Source: an uncultured bacterium
GTDB lineage: Bacteria > Patescibacteriota > Patescibacteriia > CAIQCM01
DNA length: 64,000 nt
NCBI GenBank assembly: GCA_963708045.1
Contig: OY970181.1
Location: 1,061,443-1,125,442, forward strand
Direction of reading: 5' to 3'
A model generated the notes under the pieces. It was not told the origin of the DNA. It saw nothing but the letters and a program-made list of their open reading frames with translations, and searched no databases. Positions 4,084-64,000 of this stretch are shown here, in pieces. Made by a program: the position numbers and the translations under genes. Each line of letters begins with the position of its first letter. Within the stretch, counting starts at the first letter, position 1.

Positions 4084-5685
4084 TTAAGGACTAACTTGCT
4101 CCGCTTCTGGCGGAACGGTAACCGGCCGAACCGGCAAATCGGCGCTGATAATTTCCGGCTTGGTAACATTACTTAAGTCCAGTGGATATGATTCGGTTTT
4201 CCAATAGCCAGGGTGAGTAACTGTCACATAATATGTATTTTTCCCGACCAAAAAATAATATCGCCCGCGGCGGTCAGAAATTTGCGTTTCCACAAGTTTG
4301 TTATAAGGCAAAGAAAACAAGCGGACAACGGCGTGGGCGATCGGCTTGGATGTAACTTCGTCCGAAACCACGCCCCAGCGGCCGCGATTTTTTACTTTTG
4401 AAAGCCGCTTTAAAAATAAATAAAAAACCAGTTGTAACCCGAGAATCACCCCCATATAAATTCCCGGTTTAGCGGCAAAAGAAAAAGCCGCCAAACAAAA
4501 ACTTGAAAGCGCGACGATGTTCCCAATTTTGTTCTTTAAATATTTTTTAACCAGAACGACATCGCCGACTGCTTCCGCCGCCGCGTCAACGGGAATTGCC
4601 GGGCTAACCGCCGTTTGTTCGCTCGCGCCAAATTCCGAACCAAAATACAGCGCGCCAAAGTCAGGATCGCTTTCGGCGCCCGCCATATTTTTTGACGGAA
4701 AAGAAAACCCCGGCTTGGTAACTTCTAGGCGATATTTTCCTTGTGGCGCCAAAAACATAAAACGACCGCTCGTGTCAGTGACTTTTGTCGCAATAACGCG
4801 ATTGGTCGTGGCGTCAACTAAACGCACGATTGCGAGATCAACCGGCAATCTGGTTCCAGAATTAAACACCACGCCCCAAGCCGCTTGGCGGCGACGGCGG
4901 CGAAAAAATAACGCCGGCTGAGTAAAAAACAGATACAAATAAAATCCGTATTGCGCCGTTGGCACTGAGCTCGCAGCAACGGCGACAACCGCAACCGTGC
5001 TCACTGGCGCCGCCGCTACTTCGGCCGTTGTTTCCACAATCGGATTATCTAAAACAACGCGCTTCGTAAGAATAATGGCGTTTACCGCGGGCATAACCGC
5101 CGTACCAACGGAAACCGCCGCCTCTTGTGTCACTCTTTTTTGCGTCGCGGCGGCGACCGCAGGCGGCGGATCAGCAAAACCCGACGGTGTTTCTATTTGC
5201 GCGCCAGCTTTTTGTCCGGAAAAATCGGTTTCTAAATAAAAACTAACGCGATAATTTAGACACGGCGACGCGTTACAGGCTGTGCCGTCAGAATTTAATG
5301 ATTCGTAAAGATAGTCCGCACCAAACGGTCCGGGGTTTTTGGGAACGTTAGAAAGATACACTTCGTCCTGCGGTGAATCGGTAAAACCGGCGGACGTTAA
5401 ATAATGACTGCCCGTTCCACCAAGAACCAAACCACCATCACCTCTAACGCCATCGGTCGGATACCCACCTGTGTCGTTTACGGAATATTCCAAAGCCTTA
5501 TGGATTGTATCCAAATTTGCAATCCGCGCCACGTCGCGCGACTTAGCACGGACGCTTTCATAAGAAACCGTAGCAATCGTGCTCATCAGTCCAATGATGC
5601 TGATGACGGTTAAAAGCTCAACCAAGGTAAAACCGCGATGATGCTTAGGTTGTAAGTTGTTGGTTGTAAGTTGTTGGGAAAACAT
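4084..5685 (-). CDS. type IV pilin-like protein (prepilin N-terminal methylation motif) with internal TM helices and carboxypeptidase-regulatory-like beta domains
   Basis: N-terminus ...RGFTLVELLTVISIIGLMSTIATVSY is a class III signal/pseudopilin motif. Two GRFMFLAPQGKYRLEVTKPGFSFPS / GRYYFLVGKNTYYVTVTHPGYWKTESYP segments resemble CarboxypepD_reg folds. Confidence 0.65.
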   Translation of the reverse strand: MFSQQLTTNNLQPKHHRGFTLVELLTVISIIGLMSTIATVSYESVRAKSRDVARIANLDTIHKALEYSVNDTGGYPTDGVRGDGGLVLGGTGSHYLTSAGFTDSPQDEVYLSNVPKNPGPFGADYLYESLNSDGTACNASPCLNYRVSFYLETDFSGQKAGAQIETPSGFADPPPAVAAATQKRVTQEAAVSVGTAVMPAVNAIILTKRVVLDNPIVETTAEVAAAPVSTVAVVAVAASSVPTAQYGFYLYLFFTQPALFFRRRRRQAAWGVVFNSGTRLPVDLAIVRLVDATTNRVIATKVTDTSGRFMFLAPQGKYRLEVTKPGFSFPSKNMAGAESDPDFGALYFGSEFGASEQTAVSPAIPVDAAAEAVGDVVLVKKYLKNKIGNIVALSSFCLAAFSFAAKPGIYMGVILGLQLVFYLFLKRLSKVKNRGRWGVVSDEVTSKPIAHAVVRLFSLPYNKLVETQISDRRGRYYFLVGKNTYYVTVTHPGYWKTESYPLDLSNVTKPEIISADLPVRPVTVPPEAEQVSP

Positions 5686-7333: not shown

Positions 7334-7697
7334 ATGTTACCCCCCCCCGACGGATTTCAAGGAAATTCCAATTTTGCGACGAGCGATAGACGCATACAAA
7401 CTTTGGCACAGCTTTCTTAATGCCATGCCACGAATGACAAAGTACACTTTGGGATCGCGAATTGACGGCCTTTTTGGCGACTTGATTGAAAACTTATCAG
7501 CTGCAGGATATGCGATAAAAGAAAACAAGATATCATTTCTCAATTCCGCAAGCGTAAACCTTGATCTAGTCAAATTATTTCTGCGTCTTGCTTGGGAAAT
7601 AAAAGCTCTTGACCATAAAAAATACGCCGCAGTCTCGGAACCAATAAACGACATTGGGCGAATGCTTGGTGGTTGGCGAAAACACCTTATTACTTAA
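7334..7697 (+). CDS. avd: Avd-like four-helix-bundle accessory protein (start uncertain; ATG at 7334 is out of frame unless the C9 tract at 7340-7348 is one C shorter)
   Basis: Region ...FKEIPILRRAIDAYKLWHSFLNAMPRMTKYTLGSRIDGLFGDLIENLSAAGYA...FLNSASVNLDLVKLFLRLAWEIKALDHKKYAAVSEPINDIGRMLGGWRK matches the four-helix-bundle (bAvd / 23S IVS protein) family pattern. Alternative in-frame start TTG ~7374. Confidence 0.55.
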
Positions 7698-7735
7698 CAC
7701 CCTTGAACGTTGTCAAGGGTGTTAACTGAAAAGAG

Positions 7736-7873
7736 TTGCTGACGGCGAGGAAGAACCAGTTCGCGTTCCACTGATTGCTGGGGTCGTCGTAGTTGAGGTT
7801 GAGGTTCCGTTCGCGATCGTTCTCGTTCAAGTACGCAACGTGGAGATGATCACCGAAGCGAGCGACCGAGCCG
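7736..7873 (-). repeat. DGR template repeat (TR), 138 bp
   Basis: Near-identical to VR at 8210-8347. All 11 mismatches are plus-strand T (= minus-strand A) in this copy versus C (10) or A (1) in VR. Noncoding copy, rich in AAC codons when read in target frame. Confidence 0.8.
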
Positions 7874-8127
7874 TCTGAATATGTTCAAAACCGTCCGCAC
7901 CACCACCCCTTGAATTCTCTTGGGGTTGAATTTTATACCGAGCCCTTGCTCGCTGATTTTGAACACCAAGTATTTTCAGTTTCGCACGACGATGATGCTC
8001 TAATCAGCGGCTTGCCGCTAGATTATTCTGACCCGTCGTTCGCGCGCAGATTCGGCCGCCTGAAACCTTAGTCGCAAGCAGATTTGCCTAATCCAATTAT
8101 AATTATACACCAAAAATAAAAATCACC

Positions 8128-8156
8128 CCGCACAACACGAATGTTGTGCGGGGCCG
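8128..8156 (-). terminator. hairpin/terminator downstream of DGR target gene
   Basis: ccccgcacaac-acgaat-gttgtgcgggg stem-loop followed on minus strand by TGATTTTTATTTTT, ~50 nt after target stop. Confidence 0.4.
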
Positions 8157-8205
8157 AATGATCCAAGGGTACCGACCAAGCACCAAGTACCAAGAACCCA
8201 AGTGG

Positions 8206-8865
8206 TTACTTGCTGACGGCGAGGAAGAACCAGTTCGCGTCCCACTGAATGCTGGGGTCGCCGTAGCTGAGGCTGAGGTCCCGCTCGCGATCGTCCCCGC
8301 TCAAGTACGCAACGTGGAGATGACCACCGAAGCGAGCGACCGAGCCGAGGGCAGCAATCAGATGCCTCCTTTGCTCATCTGGATACTTACTCGCAAAAGC
8401 GAGTAGTTCCTCGTAGAGCGCAGGGCGCAAACCAACTGCGTCCATAGCTTCAAGAATTTTCTTGGTCGTCATTTGACGGTCAATCCTGAAGTATTGGAAT
8501 ACTACGTCGCCAGCCGTCCGAACAATGCTCTTACATCGCTCAATTGGCTCGAACCGAGCCTTGGCGTAATCGGGGTTCACCCAATCAAACACCTTACTGA
8601 GTTCTTCGAACGACGGCTGAAGGTATTTCACGAGGGCTGTGAATACTTCAACTACCTTTTCGTTTACAGCCGCGAGTGCAGCCAGTGCCGCCGTAACCAT
8701 AACTTTGCCAAGAGCTGGTTTCTCGCCCACCGCCACAAATAGTTCTTCGGTCATACCTCCACCATTAAGCGAGGCCAGAAATGGACCCAATCCGCCGAGT
8801 TCTGTTTTGAATAGGTTTGCCATTTTAGCTACCCTACCCTTTCTTAACCGTCCCGGTACATTCAA
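8206..8865 (-). CDS. DGR variable (target) protein; VR encodes the C-terminal 46 residues
   Basis: 219 aa (alternative start MANLFK at ~8823 has a GGGTAGG-like RBS). C-terminus ...GGHLHVAYLSGDDRERDLSLSYGDPSIQWDANWFFLAVSK. Variable positions correspond to AAC/GAC/AAT codons of TR. Confidence 0.75.
   Translation of the reverse strand: MNVPGRLRKGRVAKMANLFKTELGGLGPFLASLNGGGMTEELFVAVGEKPALGKVMVTAALAALAAVNEKVVEVFTALVKYLQPSFEELSKVFDWVNPDYAKARFEPIERCKSIVRTAGDVVFQYFRIDRQMTTKKILEAMDAVGLRPALYEELLAFASKYPDEQRRHLIAALGSVARFGGHLHVAYLSGDDRERDLSLSYGDPSIQWDANWFFLAVSK
8210..8347 (-). repeat. DGR variable repeat (VR)
   Basis: 138 bp matching TR, lying at the 3' end of the target ORF (stop at 8206-8208). Substitutions N to S/D/G/I relative to the TR-encoded peptide. 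Confidence 0.8.
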
Positions 8866-9029: not shown

Positions 9030-9057
9030 TTGACAAAAATGTATAGTTTTGTATAAT
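9030..9057 (+). promoter_or_regulatory. sigma70-like promoter TTGACA-N16-TATAAT
   Basis: tTTGACAaaaatgtatagttttgTATAATttagttaaatATG. The -10 element ends ~10 nt before the ATG of the HTH-GHKL gene, so the mRNA is near-leaderless. Confidence 0.5.
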
Positions 9058-9067
9058 TTAGTTAAAT

Positions 9068-9805
9068 ATGAGTAGATTAGACAAAAAACTATATACTATT
9101 AGCGAGGCGGCCAAATATCTTGGCGTTTCAATGGTCACACTCCGTCGCTGGCACAAAGACGAGTCTTTTAAGGCGTCTTTTGTTTCCCCTGGGGGTCACC
9201 GATATTATTCCTTGGCCGATCTTGAAAAAAAGACTCGCGGTATTTTTCAAATTGCCCGCGAATGGGCCGCTTCGGAAACGCCATTTGAACAAGCAAGCGA
9301 ATTTTACGCATCAACGAGCGACCGTTTTAAAACAAGACAAGGAAGAATGGACACGGAAATGAACGCCGCGCCAAAACCGGAAAAAAATATTTCTTTGATA
9401 TCCGCGTCCGTTGGAGAAATCGGAAATAATTCTTTTGACCACAACCTCGGTAATTGGCCAGATATTCCCGGAGTATTTTTTGCTTATGATCTTGGTAAAC
9501 GAGTCATCGTCCTTGCCGACCGAGGTGTCGGAGTCTTGGAAACATTAAGACGGATTAGACCCGGATTAAAAGATCACAACAGTGCGCTACTTGCCGCATT
9601 TACGGAGATACTTACCGCTCGCGCGCCGGAACATCGCGGCAACGGATTAAAATTCGTTAAAGAAGCACTAACGATTGCCGGAGCAAATTTATCTTTTCAA
9701 TCCGGCAATGCTATTGCCGAAATAAAAGGATCAAAACCCGAGTTAATAATTAAAAACGCGGACTCGTTCATTCGCGGCTCTCTCGCATTAATTGAATATC
9801 AATAA
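9068..9805 (+). CDS. MerR-type HTH fused to GHKL (anti-sigma-factor-like Ser kinase/ATPase) domain
   Basis: N-terminus YTISEAAKYLGVSMVTLRRWHKD is a MerR-like HTH. C-terminal half carries N-box EIGNNSFDHN, G1 ADRGVGV and G2 HRGNGLKF. Paralogous to the 62159-62671 protein. Confidence 0.7.
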   Translation: MSRLDKKLYTISEAAKYLGVSMVTLRRWHKDESFKASFVSPGGHRYYSLADLEKKTRGIFQIAREWAASETPFEQASEFYASTSDRFKTRQGRMDTEMNAAPKPEKNISLISASVGEIGNNSFDHNLGNWPDIPGVFFAYDLGKRVIVLADRGVGVLETLRRIRPGLKDHNSALLAAFTEILTARAPEHRGNGLKFVKEALTIAGANLSFQSGNAIAEIKGSKPELIIKNADSFIRGSLALIEYQ

Positions 9806-10097
9806 TATGATTATTGAAATAAAAAAATTTGGCACTGTGCTTACCTCTCGCCAATCAGGCAAAGAGGCCTATTCGGCTTTTTTGCCAATCTTAACAACAA
9901 CCAAAAAAAACGAAGAAATCATCGTTGATTTCGCTGGCGTTAGTGTTTTTTCCCCATCATGGGGCGACGAATTTTTAACGCCACTCCAAACGACTTTTGG
10001 AAAATACTTGACGCTAAAAAATACAGACAATCCTTCGGTTGCGCTAACAATTTTAACTTTGGAAAAAATCAACGAAGAAAAATTTAAAATCGTTTAA
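9792..10097 (+). CDS. DUF4325 (STAS-like) domain protein, partner of the GHKL protein
   Basis: 101 aa. FGTVLTSRQSGKEAY ... IVDFAGVSVFSPSWGDEFLTPL matches the DUF4325 pattern (DF.GV...SSF.DEF). Overlaps the upstream gene by 14 nt. Paralog at 61804-62082. Confidence 0.7.
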   Translation: MNINNMIIEIKKFGTVLTSRQSGKEAYSAFLPILTTTKKNEEIIVDFAGVSVFSPSWGDEFLTPLQTTFGKYLTLKNTDNPSVALTILTLEKINEEKFKIV

Positions 10098-10275: not shown

Positions 10276-11103
10276 TTATTTCTGGCACACGGGACACCAA
10301 AAAGTGCCGCGGCTGGCGAGTTTGGTTTTTTTAATGACTCCCCCGTCGCGACGCAAACACGGCTCGCCTTCGCGGCCGTAAACTTTTAAATTTTTAACAT
10401 TGGTTCCCGCTACACCGCGCGCATCAACATAAGCATCGGCCGAAGTGCCGCGATTTTTGATGGATTCAGAAAGAACTTTTCTTATCCCCTTCCACAATTC
10501 TTTTTGCTCAGAAGGCGCTAGTTTTCCAGCCGGACGGTCGGGACGAATGCGCGCGAAGTAGAGCGCTTCGGCGGCATAAATATTTCCAATACCAGCGACG
10601 ACCTTTGGGTCCATAAGCAGTTGTTTTATTTTAACGCGCGGCCTTTTGTCCAAACGCGCCTGAAGCGCCGCGACGTCAAAATCCGCATACAGTGGTTCGG
10701 GGCCGAATTTTTGCGATTCAAGATAATCGGCGAGCTCGGCTGCGGTAAATAATTTTAAAAAACCAAAACGACGATAATCTTCCCACATTATTTGCTGGCC
10801 GCCCGTGAGATGAAAAATTACAAAAGTATGTTTGGCTGGTGGTTCATTTTTATCTTTTATAAGTACGCGCCCGGTCATTTTAAGGTGAATCACAAGTGCG
10901 TGATCGCCCGCAAGATCAATCATTAATAATTTGGCACGCCGACGCACCGCAACAATTTTTTTGCCGACGGTGGCGTTTATTAAAACACCGGCAGATACAT
11001 TCAGCCGCTTGGTTGATAAAACTTCGGTCGCAACAATTTTTTTACCGCGTACCACACTTTCAAGCTGACGGCGGATTGTTTCTACTTCTGGCAACTCTGG
11101 CAT
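10276..11103 (-). CDS. mutM: formamidopyrimidine-DNA glycosylase
   Basis: N-terminal MPELPEVETIRRQL (catalytic Pro2/Glu3), H2TH region, C-terminal zinc finger CPVCQK. Confidence 0.9.
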   Translation of the reverse strand: MPELPEVETIRRQLESVVRGKKIVATEVLSTKRLNVSAGVLINATVGKKIVAVRRRAKLLMIDLAGDHALVIHLKMTGRVLIKDKNEPPAKHTFVIFHLTGGQQIMWEDYRRFGFLKLFTAAELADYLESQKFGPEPLYADFDVAALQARLDKRPRVKIKQLLMDPKVVAGIGNIYAAEALYFARIRPDRPAGKLAPSEQKELWKGIRKVLSESIKNRGTSADAYVDARGVAGTNVKNLKVYGREGEPCLRRDGGVIKKTKLASRGTFWCPVCQK

Positions 11104-17757: not shown

Positions 17758-19041
<1,284 letters not shown>

Positions 19042-19127
19042 CTAAAGCATTATAACCGATTCACCCGCAAAGAAGCAAAAAAATACCCCCAGTTTAAAAA
19101 CTGGGGGTATTTTTGTTTAATTTATTT

Positions 19128-19943
19128 TTATTGCATCTCAAAGGTCAGTGTGACGTTGGAGGTGACATCAAGCGATCCAGTTTCAATTGACGGTGCGGCC
19201 GAGGCAGAGCTTCCCATACTATCCTTGGCATAGCTCAAATACGGCATTGGCGCATAACCATTATTTGATTCGCTAAAATTAACGACCTTGGAAAATTTAA
19301 TACCAAGTTCTTTGCTAAGCGTTGCGGCTTTGGCCGTCGCGTCAGCAATCGCTTTTTCCCGAGCGCTAGTTTGAAGCGTTTCCGGATTATCAATCGTGAA
19401 ATTTAAACCCGACACTTGGTTGGCGCCAGCGCTCGCGGCGGCGTCCAAAACCTGGGAGACTGCATCAAGCTTGCGAACCTTAACGGTCACGCCCTGATCA
19501 GCAGTATAACCAATTATGGTTTGTCTGGAACTGGAGTAATCGTAGTTTGGATAAACGTTAAAGCGTGACGTTTTAATGTCAGCCGGCAAAACACCAACCG
19601 TTTTAAGCGTCGCGATAAGCGCGTTCATTTTTTCGTTGTTTTTCTTAAGCGCGTTTTGAACATTGGCGTCCTGAGTCGTCATTCCCATATCAACCGTGGC
19701 GATGTCTGGCGTACCGACGACTTTGCCCGTACCGTTAAACGAAATTACTTGACGCTCGGCCGGCGCTTTGCCGATGACGCCAGTTTTGATGGTTTCGTTT
19801 CTAATGACCACGGTCAAAAAAACCAAACCGTAAACGAGTAAGATGGAAACAAGAAGCGCAAAAAGGCGATTCTCTTTCCAGTGCGGCCAAAAGCTGCAGT
19901 GTTTGCCGCAACTTTCGTCGGATGACTTGCTTGTGAAAGCCAT
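19128..19943 (-). CDS. SIMPL/DUF541-domain (YggE-like) exported protein
   Basis: N-terminal TM anchor. Periplasmic domain with RFNVYPNYDY...TADQGVTVKV typical of SIMPL family. Confidence 0.7.
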   Translation of the reverse strand: MAFTSKSSDESCGKHCSFWPHWKENRLFALLVSILLVYGLVFLTVVIRNETIKTGVIGKAPAERQVISFNGTGKVVGTPDIATVDMGMTTQDANVQNALKKNNEKMNALIATLKTVGVLPADIKTSRFNVYPNYDYSSSRQTIIGYTADQGVTVKVRKLDAVSQVLDAAASAGANQVSGLNFTIDNPETLQTSAREKAIADATAKAATLSKELGIKFSKVVNFSESNNGYAPMPYLSYAKDSMGSSASAAPSIETGSLDVTSNVTLTFEMQ

Positions 19944-40372: not shown

Positions 40373-40401
40373 AAACTACCACCCCTCCTCAAAAAAGTCA
40401 A

Positions 40402-40437
40402 CCTCCCATCTTTCCACGATCGCGGAAAGATGGGAGG
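40402..40437. repeat. 36-bp palindrome (bidirectional terminator-like), copy 1
   Basis: cctcccatctttccacgatcgcggaaagatgggagg flanked by A6 and T6. A near-identical perfect copy lies at 43391-43426. Confidence 0.5.
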
Positions 40438-43338: not shown

Positions 43339-43390
43339 ATTTATTCAGTATAACAAATATTCACCAACAATGTTTTCGCATTTTTTAAAA

Positions 43391-43426
43391 CCTCCCATCT
43401 TTCCGCGATCGCGGAAAGATGGGAGG
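43391..43426. repeat. 36-bp perfect palindrome, copy 2
   Basis: cctcccatctttccgcgatcgcggaaagatgggagg flanked by T6AAAA and T-rich sequence. Confidence 0.5.
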
Positions 43427-43460
43427 GGTGTTGTTTTTTAAATTTTTATTAAAATAAAAT

Positions 43461-52690: not shown

Positions 52691-52937
52691 TAGAGAACCT
52701 CCAATTGACGACAAGCCGAGACAGCAAAGCTATCCCCAAGTTTATTCACTTGCCGCTATCTCTGAAAAATCAGAAACAGGCGCAAACAAAGAAAATTAGA
52801 ACGGTTAAAAAATACAACCTTTCTTGCAAAATGTCAAGATTGAATGAAGCAGAGGGATGGCGGTGTATGTCGTAAGTTAAACCTATGACATTAAAAAAGC
52901 GCCACCCCGAGAGGCCGGGGCGGCGTTGAATTGATCC

Positions 52938-54056: not shown

Positions 54057-54377
54057 CTTGGTATCCTCCAATTGTCAACAAGCCGAGACAGCTAAGCTAT
54101 CCCCAAGTTTTTTACGCTTGCCGCTATCTCTGAAAAAACAGAAACAGGCGCAAACAGAAAAAATTAGAACGGTTAAAAAATACAACCTTTTAAGTAAAAT
54201 GTCAAGATTGGCTAATATAAAAAATCCTACTTTGATCAGCAGTATTTTGTACAAAACACCCAAGGTTCAAGTTGTAACAACGGTGCTATTTTATAATATT
54301 TAAAAAAGGTCGGGTAAGCGCTATAAGGCGCAGACCCGACCTTGGTAGAATCGATAACCCCGATTTAGGGTTCTTCT

Positions 54378-58061: not shown

Positions 58062-58317
58062 GTTCGTATTATACCAAATTTACAAACCATGTCTCGTACC
58101 GATGAACGAGTAGAGACAAAAAATCACCCTTTTGCGGAATACGCAGTGGCCAATATTGACAAAAAGCTAATTTTATAGTATCCTACTCGGTTATCGGTGC
58201 CCTGCTGAATTACGAGAGAACCCTCTCTTAATTCAGAAGGTCATCGCCAAATTTGTTATCACCCGGCTTAACGGGCGACAGAGGCGGCATGATTCTTCGC
58301 CGAACAGGAGAACGGAA

Positions 58318-60784: not shown

Positions 60785-61249
60785 TTACAGCATGCACTTA
60801 GCGGACAGACCCATCACCTTTCCATCATTCAACTCCCAACCAGATTCGCAATTTGCCATTTCCATTTTTTGACATTGCCCGATCGGCTTAAGCGCGGCGC
60901 AATCAAAGCCCTTGTCCAGTTTGACGCATTGATTAAGGATCCCGTAGTTGCCAAGGATGATGTCAGGAGTATTGGGCATAGCCGGAGAAGCGACGAGACA
61001 ATGCCCGCTGCAGTCAGAAGTTCTAACGCAACTCTTTCCCCCGTCTCGATACGGCACGACGCATTTATATGAACAGCCGCCGATACCGCAGCCGGCTTCA
61101 ATCGTTGTTCCGTGGCGAGCTTTGCAGGTGGTTTCTGAAACGAAATTAAAAACAGGTTCAACTGTTGTGCGCGGCAGGCTGAACAACACCACCGCCCCCA
61201 CAACAACAACGGCGATAACGATAATTAATGGGATAATTTTAGTTTTCAT
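60785..61249 (-). CDS. small secreted Cys-rich protein
   Basis: Revised start MKTKIIPLIIVIAVVVVGAVVLF (TM anchor). The upstream 50 codons of the track ORF overlap a terminator and candidate RNA. 10+ Cys. Confidence 0.5.
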   Translation of the reverse strand: MKTKIIPLIIVIAVVVVGAVVLFSLPRTTVEPVFNFVSETTCKARHGTTIEAGCGIGGCSYKCVVPYRDGGKSCVRTSDCSGHCLVASPAMPNTPDIILGNYGILNQCVKLDKGFDCAALKPIGQCQKMEMANCESGWELNDGKVMGLSAKCML

Positions 61250-61340
61250 AATTGATCCATTATATAACCCTTCTATCAAAAAAGAAACGCGAATAGCAGG
61301 ACATCTCTGCCACCATTGCAACAAATTAATTCCAAAGATA

Positions 61341-61638
61341 AAAAAAGACCCGCGGCTCGATAGCTTTGGGTCTCGGCGGTTGGCAAAGTGACTTACCAAC
61401 GTCGTTTGTGAGTTCGGTACCTTTGTACCAAATCTCTTTGCCTGATGGCTGAGCTGGATTCAGATATCACTGTCTGATCGGCTCGTTTTGCCGCACGCTT
61501 TGGGATAGGTACCAAAGAGTCGGCTTCAATTGTGGCTTTTGCCACTGCACGATAAGCTACTGCCTATCATCTTATCGCGCAACTAACGGTTGTTCGTCCA
61601 GGATCCCCTGCGACGATCAAGACGCGATTGCATCCTGA
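61341..61638 (-). ncRNA. candidate ~300-nt structured RNA or long 5' leader (class not identified)
   Basis: Near-consensus promoter TTGACA-N17-TATGAT on minus strand at 61645-61673. No ORF. Nested inverted repeats (ctctttg/caaagag, tcaga/tctga, gagc/gctc). Terminator hairpin + T7 at ~61341-61372. Confidence 0.35.
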
Positions 61639-61730
61639 CAAAGAATCATAGCATGAATCTATGAAAATGTCAAGACTGCCAGGACACCCCCGCGTTCCAC
61701 AACCAATGCACCATAAACAAATTTAGAAAT

Positions 61731-61763
61731 CAAAAAGCCAGCCGTGAGGCTGACTTTTTAAGC
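61731..61763. terminator. bidirectional intrinsic terminator
   Basis: A5-gccagcc-gtga-ggctgac-T5, downstream of the minus-strand STAS gene and upstream of the ncRNA promoter. Confidence 0.45.
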
Positions 61764-61803
61764 GGGGCATCTGGGAGGCGGTTAGAATTATTTGTAAAAA
61801 ACT

Positions 61804-62082
61804 CTATACAGTGGCCGATGCATTAATCGTTTGAAAAGTCGTTTTTACGCTAAGGTTATCGCCTTCGATGATCTTTATCTTTGATGCGCCAAAATCGTTT
61901 TTTAGACCGGTAACGAATTCATCGGCCCATGACGGAGTAAGGACATTAACTTTGGAAAAATCCAATTCAATCGGCTCGTCGCCGTCTTTGGGAATATTAT
62001 AAGCGCGCGCACTTAAATACGCTTCGCGTCCGGCGGGGCGGGAAATAAGAGTTGTACCAAATTTGCTAATGTCGATTCTCAT
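61804..62082 (-). CDS. DUF4325 (STAS-like) domain protein, paralog of 9792-10097
   Basis: FGTTLISRPAGREAY ... LDFSKVNVLTPSWADEFVTGL. Confidence 0.7.
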   Translation of the reverse strand: MRIDISKFGTTLISRPAGREAYLSARAYNIPKDGDEPIELDFSKVNVLTPSWADEFVTGLKNDFGASKIKIIEGDNLSVKTTFQTINASATV

Positions 62083-63720: not shown

Positions 63721-64000
63721 TTACTTCTTTGCGACCACTACTGTCAAGCGTCCGCCTTGGCGCGAGAACGGCTGGTCAATTTTAACGCCAACGGCTTCAT
63801 CTAGCCCTTTTATAAAGCCATCCATCACTTGGCGAGCCAAATCCATAAATTGCCGCTCCCGACCGCGCAAAATAACCTCAACCTGAACGCGATCGCCGCC
63901 ATCCAAAAACTCTTTGGCTTTGTCTAAACGTACATCGCGATCGTGGGCGCCAATTCTAAGAGAAAGACGAATTCCCTTAACTTCCACCTTATGGGCGTGG
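63721..64000 (-). CDS. infC: translation initiation factor IF-3 (partial; N-terminus beyond right edge)
   Basis: C-terminal domain ...RGRERQFMDLARQVMDGFIKGLDEAVGVKIDQPFSRQGGRLTVVVAKK. The reading frame stays open to position 64000. Confidence 0.85.
   Translation of the reverse strand, partial: HAHKVEVKGIRLSLRIGAHDRDVRLDKAKEFLDGGDRVQVEVILRGRERQFMDLARQVMDGFIKGLDEAVGVKIDQPFSRQGGRLTVVVAKK

Follow-up and report, generated by a model that had tools for sequence, protein, structure and literature searches.

The question raised by this locus is whether a gap of 554 nt between two protein genes on the minus strand encodes a structured non-coding RNA and, if it does, whether the transcript is released as an RNA in its own right or forms the leader of the gene that follows. 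The window, by which we mean the whole stretch of DNA analysed here, comprises 64,000 nt. Patescibacteria have tiny genomes and depend on host cells; to our knowledge, almost nothing is known about their regulatory or structural RNAs, and a literature search on Patescibacteria non-coding RNAs and on DUF4325 found nothing relevant.

The genes on the minus strand run in the order infC, rpmI, rplT, tRNA-Asp (62813–62735), a gene for an ATPase-like protein of 170 aa (62671–62159), a gene for a DUF4325 STAS-like protein of 92 aa (62082–61804), the candidate RNA, a Cys-rich orphan, a gene for a 481-aa TSP3-repeat protein, and further orphans. The names attached to homologues of L20 and of the DUF4325 protein point to a Patescibacteria, Uhrbacteria-like source organism. 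The Cys-rich neighbour (60785–61249, minus strand, ATG at 61249) is a predicted membrane-anchored or secreted protein of 154 aa with an N-terminal hydrophobic anchor and 12 cysteines. It falls only into its own cluster among 5.8 billion protein clusters and has no match in Pfam, NCBIfam, or PADLOC.

Promoter, terminators, and coding potential of the gap

The initial annotation described, just upstream of a Cys-rich protein gene, a near-consensus promoter, ~300 nt without an ORF, a terminal hairpin with a T7 run, and a two-way terminator that insulates the promoter from the upstream operon; all of these, the Cys-rich gene included, are borne out. The promoter is of the sigma-70 type with an extended −10 element, TTGACA-17-TGc-TATGAT (61645–61673, minus strand). 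TTGACA occupies 61673–61668 and is separated by a 17-nt spacer from TATGAT at 61650–61645, which together give 11/12 matches, and the additional TG lies at 61653–61652. Transcription is predicted to start near G61639. Promoter-like sites with at least 11/12 matches number five in the 64-kb window (both strands), compared with 0.87 expected, and the promoter of the candidate RNA is the only one that combines 11/12 matches with the TG, for which 0.07 sites are expected in 128 kb of strand. The remaining strong sites sit 5′ of genes, as exemplified by a perfect site at 9030–9057 before ATG 9068, and the organism thus appears to use this type of promoter.

That perfect site belongs to a second, diverged pair of ATPase-like and DUF4325 genes (9030–10097, plus strand), in which the ATPase-like protein has 245 aa and an extra N-terminal segment. 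Its TTGACA-16-TATAAT promoter ends 10 nt before the ATG, which suggests a leaderless mRNA. The second pair is not followed by an RNA resembling the candidate.

The 3′ end of the predicted transcript is an intrinsic terminator, T1 (61340–61374, minus strand; −13.1 kcal/mol), composed of a GAGACCC / GGGUCUU stem (61374–61368 / 61351–61345), an inner GCU-AUCG-AGC hairpin of 3 bp, and U7 at 61346–61340. T1 accounts for 76% of the ensemble; its absence from an automatic terminator scan is explained by its loop, which exceeds 8 nt. Beyond T1 lies a weak second terminator-like hairpin (61280–61314, minus strand; −10 kcal/mol) with the U-rich tail CGCGUUUCUUUUUUGAU. Its z of −0.8 is not significant alone, and its tail resembles that of T1 (82% over 17 nt). 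On the other side of the promoter, the ATPase-DUF4325 operon ends in the hairpin AAAAAGUCAGCC-UCAC-GGCUGGCUUUUU (61730–61761, minus strand), flanked by A5 and U5. This hairpin has an energy of −19.0 kcal/mol on the minus strand (z −5.0) and −13.1 kcal/mol on the plus strand, which makes termination possible in both directions. As the upstream operon has a strong terminator of its own, the candidate RNA unit is insulated from it. The predicted non-coding transcript is ~300 nt in length (61340–61639, minus strand), an assignment based on promoter, terminator, and folding, with no ORF of more than 50 aa and no Rfam match.

The window is ~87% coding, and none of its non-coding gaps exceeds the 554 nt of this one, which shares first place. 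No credible ORF is present on the minus strand after the promoter, and the largest ORFs of the gap on either strand have 50, 36, and 27 aa. A search of 1.84 billion representative proteins gave the 50-aa ORF no true homologue (one spurious 20-residue match), and none of the stop-free pieces from the six frames matches a Pfam family below E = 0.02, all scores being beneath the family cut-offs. Comparison with relatives by tblastx reveals no decayed gene in the candidate RNA region. A small protein gene or a decayed gene was rejected as an explanation, given that neither homologues nor a domain match was obtained.

In the other large gap of the window (7655–8205, minus strand; 551 nt), the 3′ end of the adjacent gene at 8865–8206 is partly duplicated in decayed form (compare ...DPSIQWDANWFFLAVSK). 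This duplicate follows the strong terminator of that gene at 8154–8125.

Predicted fold of the transcript

The nested inverted repeats noticed at this locus correspond to strong predicted folding into a chain of about ten local hairpins. The minimum free energy of a 307-nt transcript is about −118.6 kcal/mol, with z = −6.8 from the folding tool and z = −7.9 from our own dinucleotide shuffles. None of 36 length-matched random windows (mean z −1.0, sd 1.6, minimum −6.15) reaches the value of the candidate RNA. The random window with z −6.15, the second most extreme value, is a 306-nt segment at 18910–19215 that spans a 116-nt gap between the genes at 17758–19011 and 19128–19943.

Most helices of the candidate RNA have a pair probability of at least 0.9, and the hairpins are joined by A-rich linkers. 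The fold begins with two 5′ hairpins (61594–61638, minus strand; mean pair probabilities 0.89–1.00): H1 (61638–61617), which has 9 bp and the loop AAUC and contains CAGGAUG, and H2 (61616–61594), with the loop GGAU. They are followed by a central block (61403–61588, minus strand) that is predicted to fold into six local hairpins, H3 (61581–61546), H4 (61545–61532), H5 (61524–61490), H6 (61484–61451), H7 (61449–61440), and H8 (61436–61410), connected by the linkers AAUUGAA, AAAAC, and AAA. Hairpin H9, GUUGGUAAG-UCAC-UUUGCCAAC (61379–61400, minus strand; P 0.92), has 9 bp, including 2 G-U, and precedes T1. The sole long-range helix, CGUU/AACG, closes the central block with 4 bp and is weak (P 0.4), and the ends of the RNA are not joined.

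The plus strand folds nearly as well (−115.1 kcal/mol, z −4.5), and only 8 of the ~100 pairs of the candidate RNA are G-U; since both strands fold well, the choice of strand for the candidate RNA rests on promoter and terminator. On a GC-corrected scale of minimum free energy, the candidate region lies ~2.2–2.7 sd from the window mean and is not the most extreme, because several terminator clusters or palindromic terminators elsewhere in the window fold harder. Other intergenic stretches of the window are likewise rich in hairpins.

Further structured or repeated elements were observed in the window. The same 37-nt perfect palindrome (ACCTCCCATCTTTCC-CGATCG-GGAAAGATGGGAGG) occurs at 40401–40437 and at ~43390–43427, followed in each case by a T-run, and constitutes a repeated element of terminator type or REP-like. 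The 256-nt gap between divergent genes at 58062–58317 has z of −4.3 and −5.3 on the two strands and promoter-like sites toward both neighbours, and structured 5′ leaders may be located there. Genes for two different proteins, one of 287 aa and one of 377 aa (Rax2-like), are preceded by stretches of ~70 nt that are nearly identical (AATCTTGACATTTT...AAAGGTTGTATTTTTTAACCGTTCTAATTTT...TGTTTGCGCCTGTTTCT; 52770–52867 and 54140–54235, minus strand) and appear to represent a promoter with its 5′ region that was duplicated.

Within the candidate RNA, the H3 loop GAUAGG and the H5 loop CCUAUC could form a 6-bp loop-loop contact, and AUC is apparently in excess in hairpin loops; both points were seen by eye only and are not claimed here. 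Enrichment of the pentamers GGUAC, UGGUA, and CAAAG is not significant after correction for 1024 tests. Target prediction with RNAduplex against 73 gene starts of the window gave equal or better results for shuffled RNAs.

Homologue searches and the variable locus

Conservation had been set as a test of the candidate, and here the outcome was negative: no homologue was found in any sequence searched, including the same slot in close relatives. Within the window, blastn, nhmmer, and a covariance model, R1, built on the central block (186 nt, 61 pairs), recover only the candidate RNA itself and no paralogue. Over 406 kb (the window plus Patescibacteria loci), R1 again finds only itself. Searches with nhmmer and blastn detected no homologue in 80 L20-anchored loci of GTDB genomes, in which the relatives are at most 65% identical, or in 21 close-relative loci, of which L081–L085, L114, and L115 were obtained from L20 homologues and L086–L099 from DUF4325 homologues. 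Nor was a homologue found in 35 Patescibacteria loci, and blastn of phage and plasmid collections gave no match. A metagenome scan with one 18-mer (H2/H3 junction) and two viral scans (16-mer and 17-mer) returned chance seeds only, none extending, and 14 pattern-derived loci held nothing beyond the search seeds.

The scan patterns were guesses, as no conserved block is known, and required exact words of 16–18 nt; 10–20 kb was searched per relative and ~5% of the source genome (64 kb of 1,188,223 bp). With exact-word scans and so small a searched share, these negatives are weak evidence of absence. The lack of a homologue also means that the candidate RNA has neither covariation support nor evidence of purifying selection. 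In two other assemblies (Logan ERR15459707 and ERR12035931), the genes for identical DUF4325 and Cys-rich proteins are separated by exactly 554 nt. The gene that follows encodes 593 aa instead of 481 aa in one of the two, and the spacing is thus retained in at least one variant strain despite a different next gene. The candidate RNA and the Cys-rich gene appear to occur together in the three assemblies known to carry them.

The surrounding region is variable. A pair of ATPase-like and DUF4325 genes 3′ of tRNA-Asp is conserved in several relatives. In L099, which has 87% DUF4325 identity, nearly every base of the DUF4325 terminator is kept and homology with the window breaks off directly behind it, placing the candidate RNA and its promoter in the variable part. 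Relatives with DUF4325 proteins of 83–89% identity have other genes within 100–200 nt of DUF4325. Relative to L082 (81% L20 identity), synteny resumes only at ~38 kb, at an AI-2E transporter gene, from which the stretch from 38.1 to 62.7 kb is taken to be variable. The cargo found in relatives 3′ of tRNA-Asp or DUF4325 includes His_Phos_1, an IS200-type Y1 transposase, an Ltp lipoprotein, AbiEii, and HicA.

A genomic island with att sites was considered and rejected, since the 3′ end of tRNA-Asp is not duplicated in the window and neither integrase nor phage genes occur between 38 and 62 kb. In L082, the last ~20 nt of tRNA-Asp (AAATCCCATCGGGCCCGCCA) recur at 10296–10315, ~125 nt 3′ of the tRNA gene. 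This copy looks like an att-type scar and would fit the tRNA as an integration hotspot. A non-autonomous transposable element (a MITE or an IS200/IS605-derived element) was likewise rejected for the candidate, which has no bracketing terminal inverted repeats and no second copy in the window; comparison of the candidate RNA with the IS200-bearing loci L089–L097 showed no similarity.

The variability of the locus bears on the possibility that the gap is a non-functional relic, in which recombination or gene loss would have left an orphan promoter, terminator-like palindromes, and filler DNA, and any transcript would be incidental. The absence of the RNA from all relatives and the break in L099 homology after the DUF4325 terminator are what such a relic predicts, and the variability of 38.1–62.7 kb against L082 is consistent with it. 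The decayed gene duplicate at 7655–8205 indicates that junk DNA is retained in this genome, whose intergenic regions commonly contain long perfect hairpins, and the ability of both strands to fold well also fits. However, it is unlikely that an extended −10 promoter this close to perfect and, 300 nt away, a terminator in the correct orientation are remnants, and ten well-defined hairpins with z of about −7 are not expected from decayed coding sequence. The gap bears no trace of a decayed ORF, no similarity to the neighbour genes of relatives, and no MITE-like terminal inverted repeats, tandem repeats, or extra copies; moreover, the length of the slot is kept in a variant strain. On balance, we regard a relic as somewhat unlikely, though it deserves to be taken seriously.

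Proposed release as a discrete RNA and comparison with known systems

The initial annotation left the choice between an sRNA and a riboswitch- or attenuator-type leader. The transcription unit common to both stands, and of the two an sRNA is favoured over a leader. As a cis-acting leader, the RNA would control the Cys-rich and TSP3-repeat genes, with T1 as a conditional attenuator whose effect is lifted by a ligand, a protein, or a tRNA. Promoter, structured RNA, terminator, and ORF do lie on one strand, with 90 nt from the U-tract to the ATG, and RNA and downstream orphan gene appear to occur together in three assemblies. Like riboswitch and attenuator leaders, the candidate is a structured RNA with a terminator shortly 5′ of an ORF; unlike them, it has no known aptamer, no terminator/antiterminator alternative, and no stable junction-closing helix, a helix that is typical of known aptamers. 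A chain of local hairpins of this kind does not resemble any of those aptamers, and no Rfam riboswitch, T-box, or leader was matched at E up to 10.

Folding of transcripts truncated before the 3′ strand of T1 is informative on this point. In these folds GAGACCC is unpaired or forms a weak local 5-bp helix with the adjacent loop (GAGCC), and this freedom of the T1 5′ strand argues that there is no antiterminator of comparable stability. The only terminator alternative that can be drawn by eye is a 6-bp CUUUGG/CCAAAG helix: CCCAAAGC occurs in both the 3′ strand of H5 and the 5′ strand of T1, and CUUUGG of H5 could in principle pair with either.

The Cys-rich gene also appears to have a start signal of its own. 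A TATAAT box (61259–61264, minus strand) lies 9 nt 5′ of its ATG, a spacing that recurs at about ten other gene starts, and it is probably the promoter of this gene, giving a leaderless mRNA. A −10-like hexamer 6–10 nt before the start codon is found at about ten of the ~70 genes in the window (for example at 5685, 6300, 9068, 12902, 21226, 25121, 38060, 45869, 58061, and 61249), a pattern that points to frequent use of leaderless mRNAs in this Patescibacteria genome. In favour of a leader, the downstream box has no recognisable −35 and no TG and may be weak; against it, the box stands at leaderless spacing, and the second U-tailed hairpin after T1 points to insulation, although that hairpin is itself weak. 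With no competing helix, a fold made of local hairpins, and a separate TATAAT for the Cys-rich gene, the sRNA is preferred, and we judge the leader to be unlikely.

The explanation that we favour, tentatively and at somewhat short of an even chance, is that the gap holds a stand-alone, lineage-specific gene for a non-coding RNA. The extended −10 sigma-70 promoter would start transcription near 61639 constitutively, and the ~300-nt transcript would fold co-transcriptionally into about ten local hairpins with short A-rich linkers. T1 (61374–61340) would also act constitutively, such that the RNA is released as a discrete species and not as a leader. We infer that the RNA would act in trans, by regulating through base pairing or by binding protein as a scaffold or sponge; the choice between these, like the target, is a guess. 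Whether acquired or newly formed, the RNA gene probably has a recent origin that it shares with the neighbouring orphan genes for surface proteins. A stand-alone RNA is supported by the rarity of the promoter, the position of T1 ~300 nt further on, the insulation of the unit, the lack of a coding signal, and the folding z; it is weakened by the lack of a homologue, the variable slot, the folding of the plus strand, and the hairpin-rich intergenic stretches elsewhere.

A bolder form of the proposal appears improbable to us, namely that this is the founding example of a new Patescibacteria class of ~300-nt structured, highly expressed RNAs that serve as scaffold or sponge for a protein of these reduced, episymbiotic cells. 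Homologues would then have been missed because the scans used exact 16–18-mers and 10–20 kb per relative. If well expressed, a structured RNA of 300 nt that lies beside surface-protein genes in a variable locus could serve strain-specific host interaction or defence. As an orphan of a single genome, its value is that of a concrete, cheaply testable candidate and not of a discovery.

Comparison with known families began with Rfam 15 (4227 covariance models), the check proposed for this locus, which was run at gathering thresholds on the window and permissively, with E up to 10, on 61200–61850. At gathering thresholds tRNA-Asp is the sole match in the window, and the permissive cmscan returned three noise matches of 12–16 bits (mir-576, a Brucella sRNA, and HOXB13-AS1). 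No known family was thus assigned to the candidate, in agreement with the earlier impression by eye that it is not RNase P, tmRNA, SRP, 6S, or T-box. ARAGORN finds no tmRNA in the window. In relatives the tmRNA gene directly follows smpB, just 5′ of infC (L081 4144–4532, L082 8311–8711, and L084 8639–9037); in the source genome it would therefore fall beyond the window end at 64000, and the candidate RNA is not tmRNA.

Very unlikely, in our estimation, is a highly divergent form of a known RNA that Rfam missed, such as 6S, RNase P, large SRP RNA, a transposon-associated omega RNA, or a type III antitoxin. A strong, constitutive-looking promoter and the size of the transcript would suit a housekeeping RNA, none of these RNAs was found in the 64-kb window, and in some relatives this slot is taken by IS200-type Y1 transposase genes. 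The permissive cmscan nevertheless gave only noise. In sequence and fold the candidate shows neither the GGAAAGUC or ACAGA of an RNase P core nor a GGAA SRP loop, a rod with a central bubble is likewise not seen, and tandem repeats are absent. No transposase, reverse transcriptase, nuclease, or cas gene is nearby, and a housekeeping RNA should appear in relatives with 80–90% identical L20, of which 10–20 kb each was searched. An RNA of a defence system was rejected in turn, PADLOC being negative for the four neighbouring proteins.

The 6S RNA family, with a length of ~180–200 nt, is poorly conserved in sequence, and Rfam can miss its members. The candidate is like 6S RNA in having its own promoter and terminator and in its expected abundance. 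Unlike 6S RNA, it is 300 nt in length, lacks a long irregular rod with a central bubble, and has unpaired ends; with ten local hairpins instead of a rod, this assignment was rejected.

A type III toxin-antitoxin system (ToxIN-like) shares with this locus the order of promoter, RNA, terminator, and ORF on one strand and a variable setting, the same region in relatives carrying AbiEii and HicA genes. Type III antitoxin RNAs are tandem arrays of 34–36-nt repeats, whereas no tandem repeats (TRF, minimum score 30) and no direct-repeat family were found inside the candidate RNA. The downstream protein also differs, being Cys-rich and membrane-anchored or secreted, with no nuclease or PADLOC match, and is not ToxN/AbiQ-like. 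A type III antitoxin RNA was rejected for the lack of repeats and of a downstream endoribonuclease.

In overall architecture, the candidate is reminiscent of the sponge sRNAs CsrB and RsmZ, which are several hundred nucleotides in length, have their own sigma-70 promoter and an intrinsic terminator, and fold into a chain of hairpins with single-stranded linkers. Its 5′ CAGGAUG, present in a single copy, is identical to the CsrB repeat. CsrB has roughly 18–22 GGA triplets, whereas the candidate has three (RNA positions 5, 34, and 41), of which only that at 34 is in a loop. Furthermore, Rfam gives no match to CsrB, RsmX, RsmY, or RsmZ, and no CsrA gene is present in the 64-kb window (of a 1.19-Mb genome). 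As a Csr/Rsm sponge requires many GGA motifs in loops or linkers, the candidate was rejected as one.

LOOT RNA (RF03000) was observed in the related Patescibacteria genome L081 (13482–13604; 76 bits, E 1e-12), which is the nearest relative by L20 (90% identity) and in which it occupies a 366-nt gap 3′ of rplT in a variable stretch. At 121 nt it differs in length from the candidate, and the two are similar neither in sequence nor at the level of the model, the candidate giving no LOOT match even at E up to 10. LOOT RNA is nevertheless like the candidate in being a structured non-coding RNA of unknown function that lies in a similar neighbourhood.
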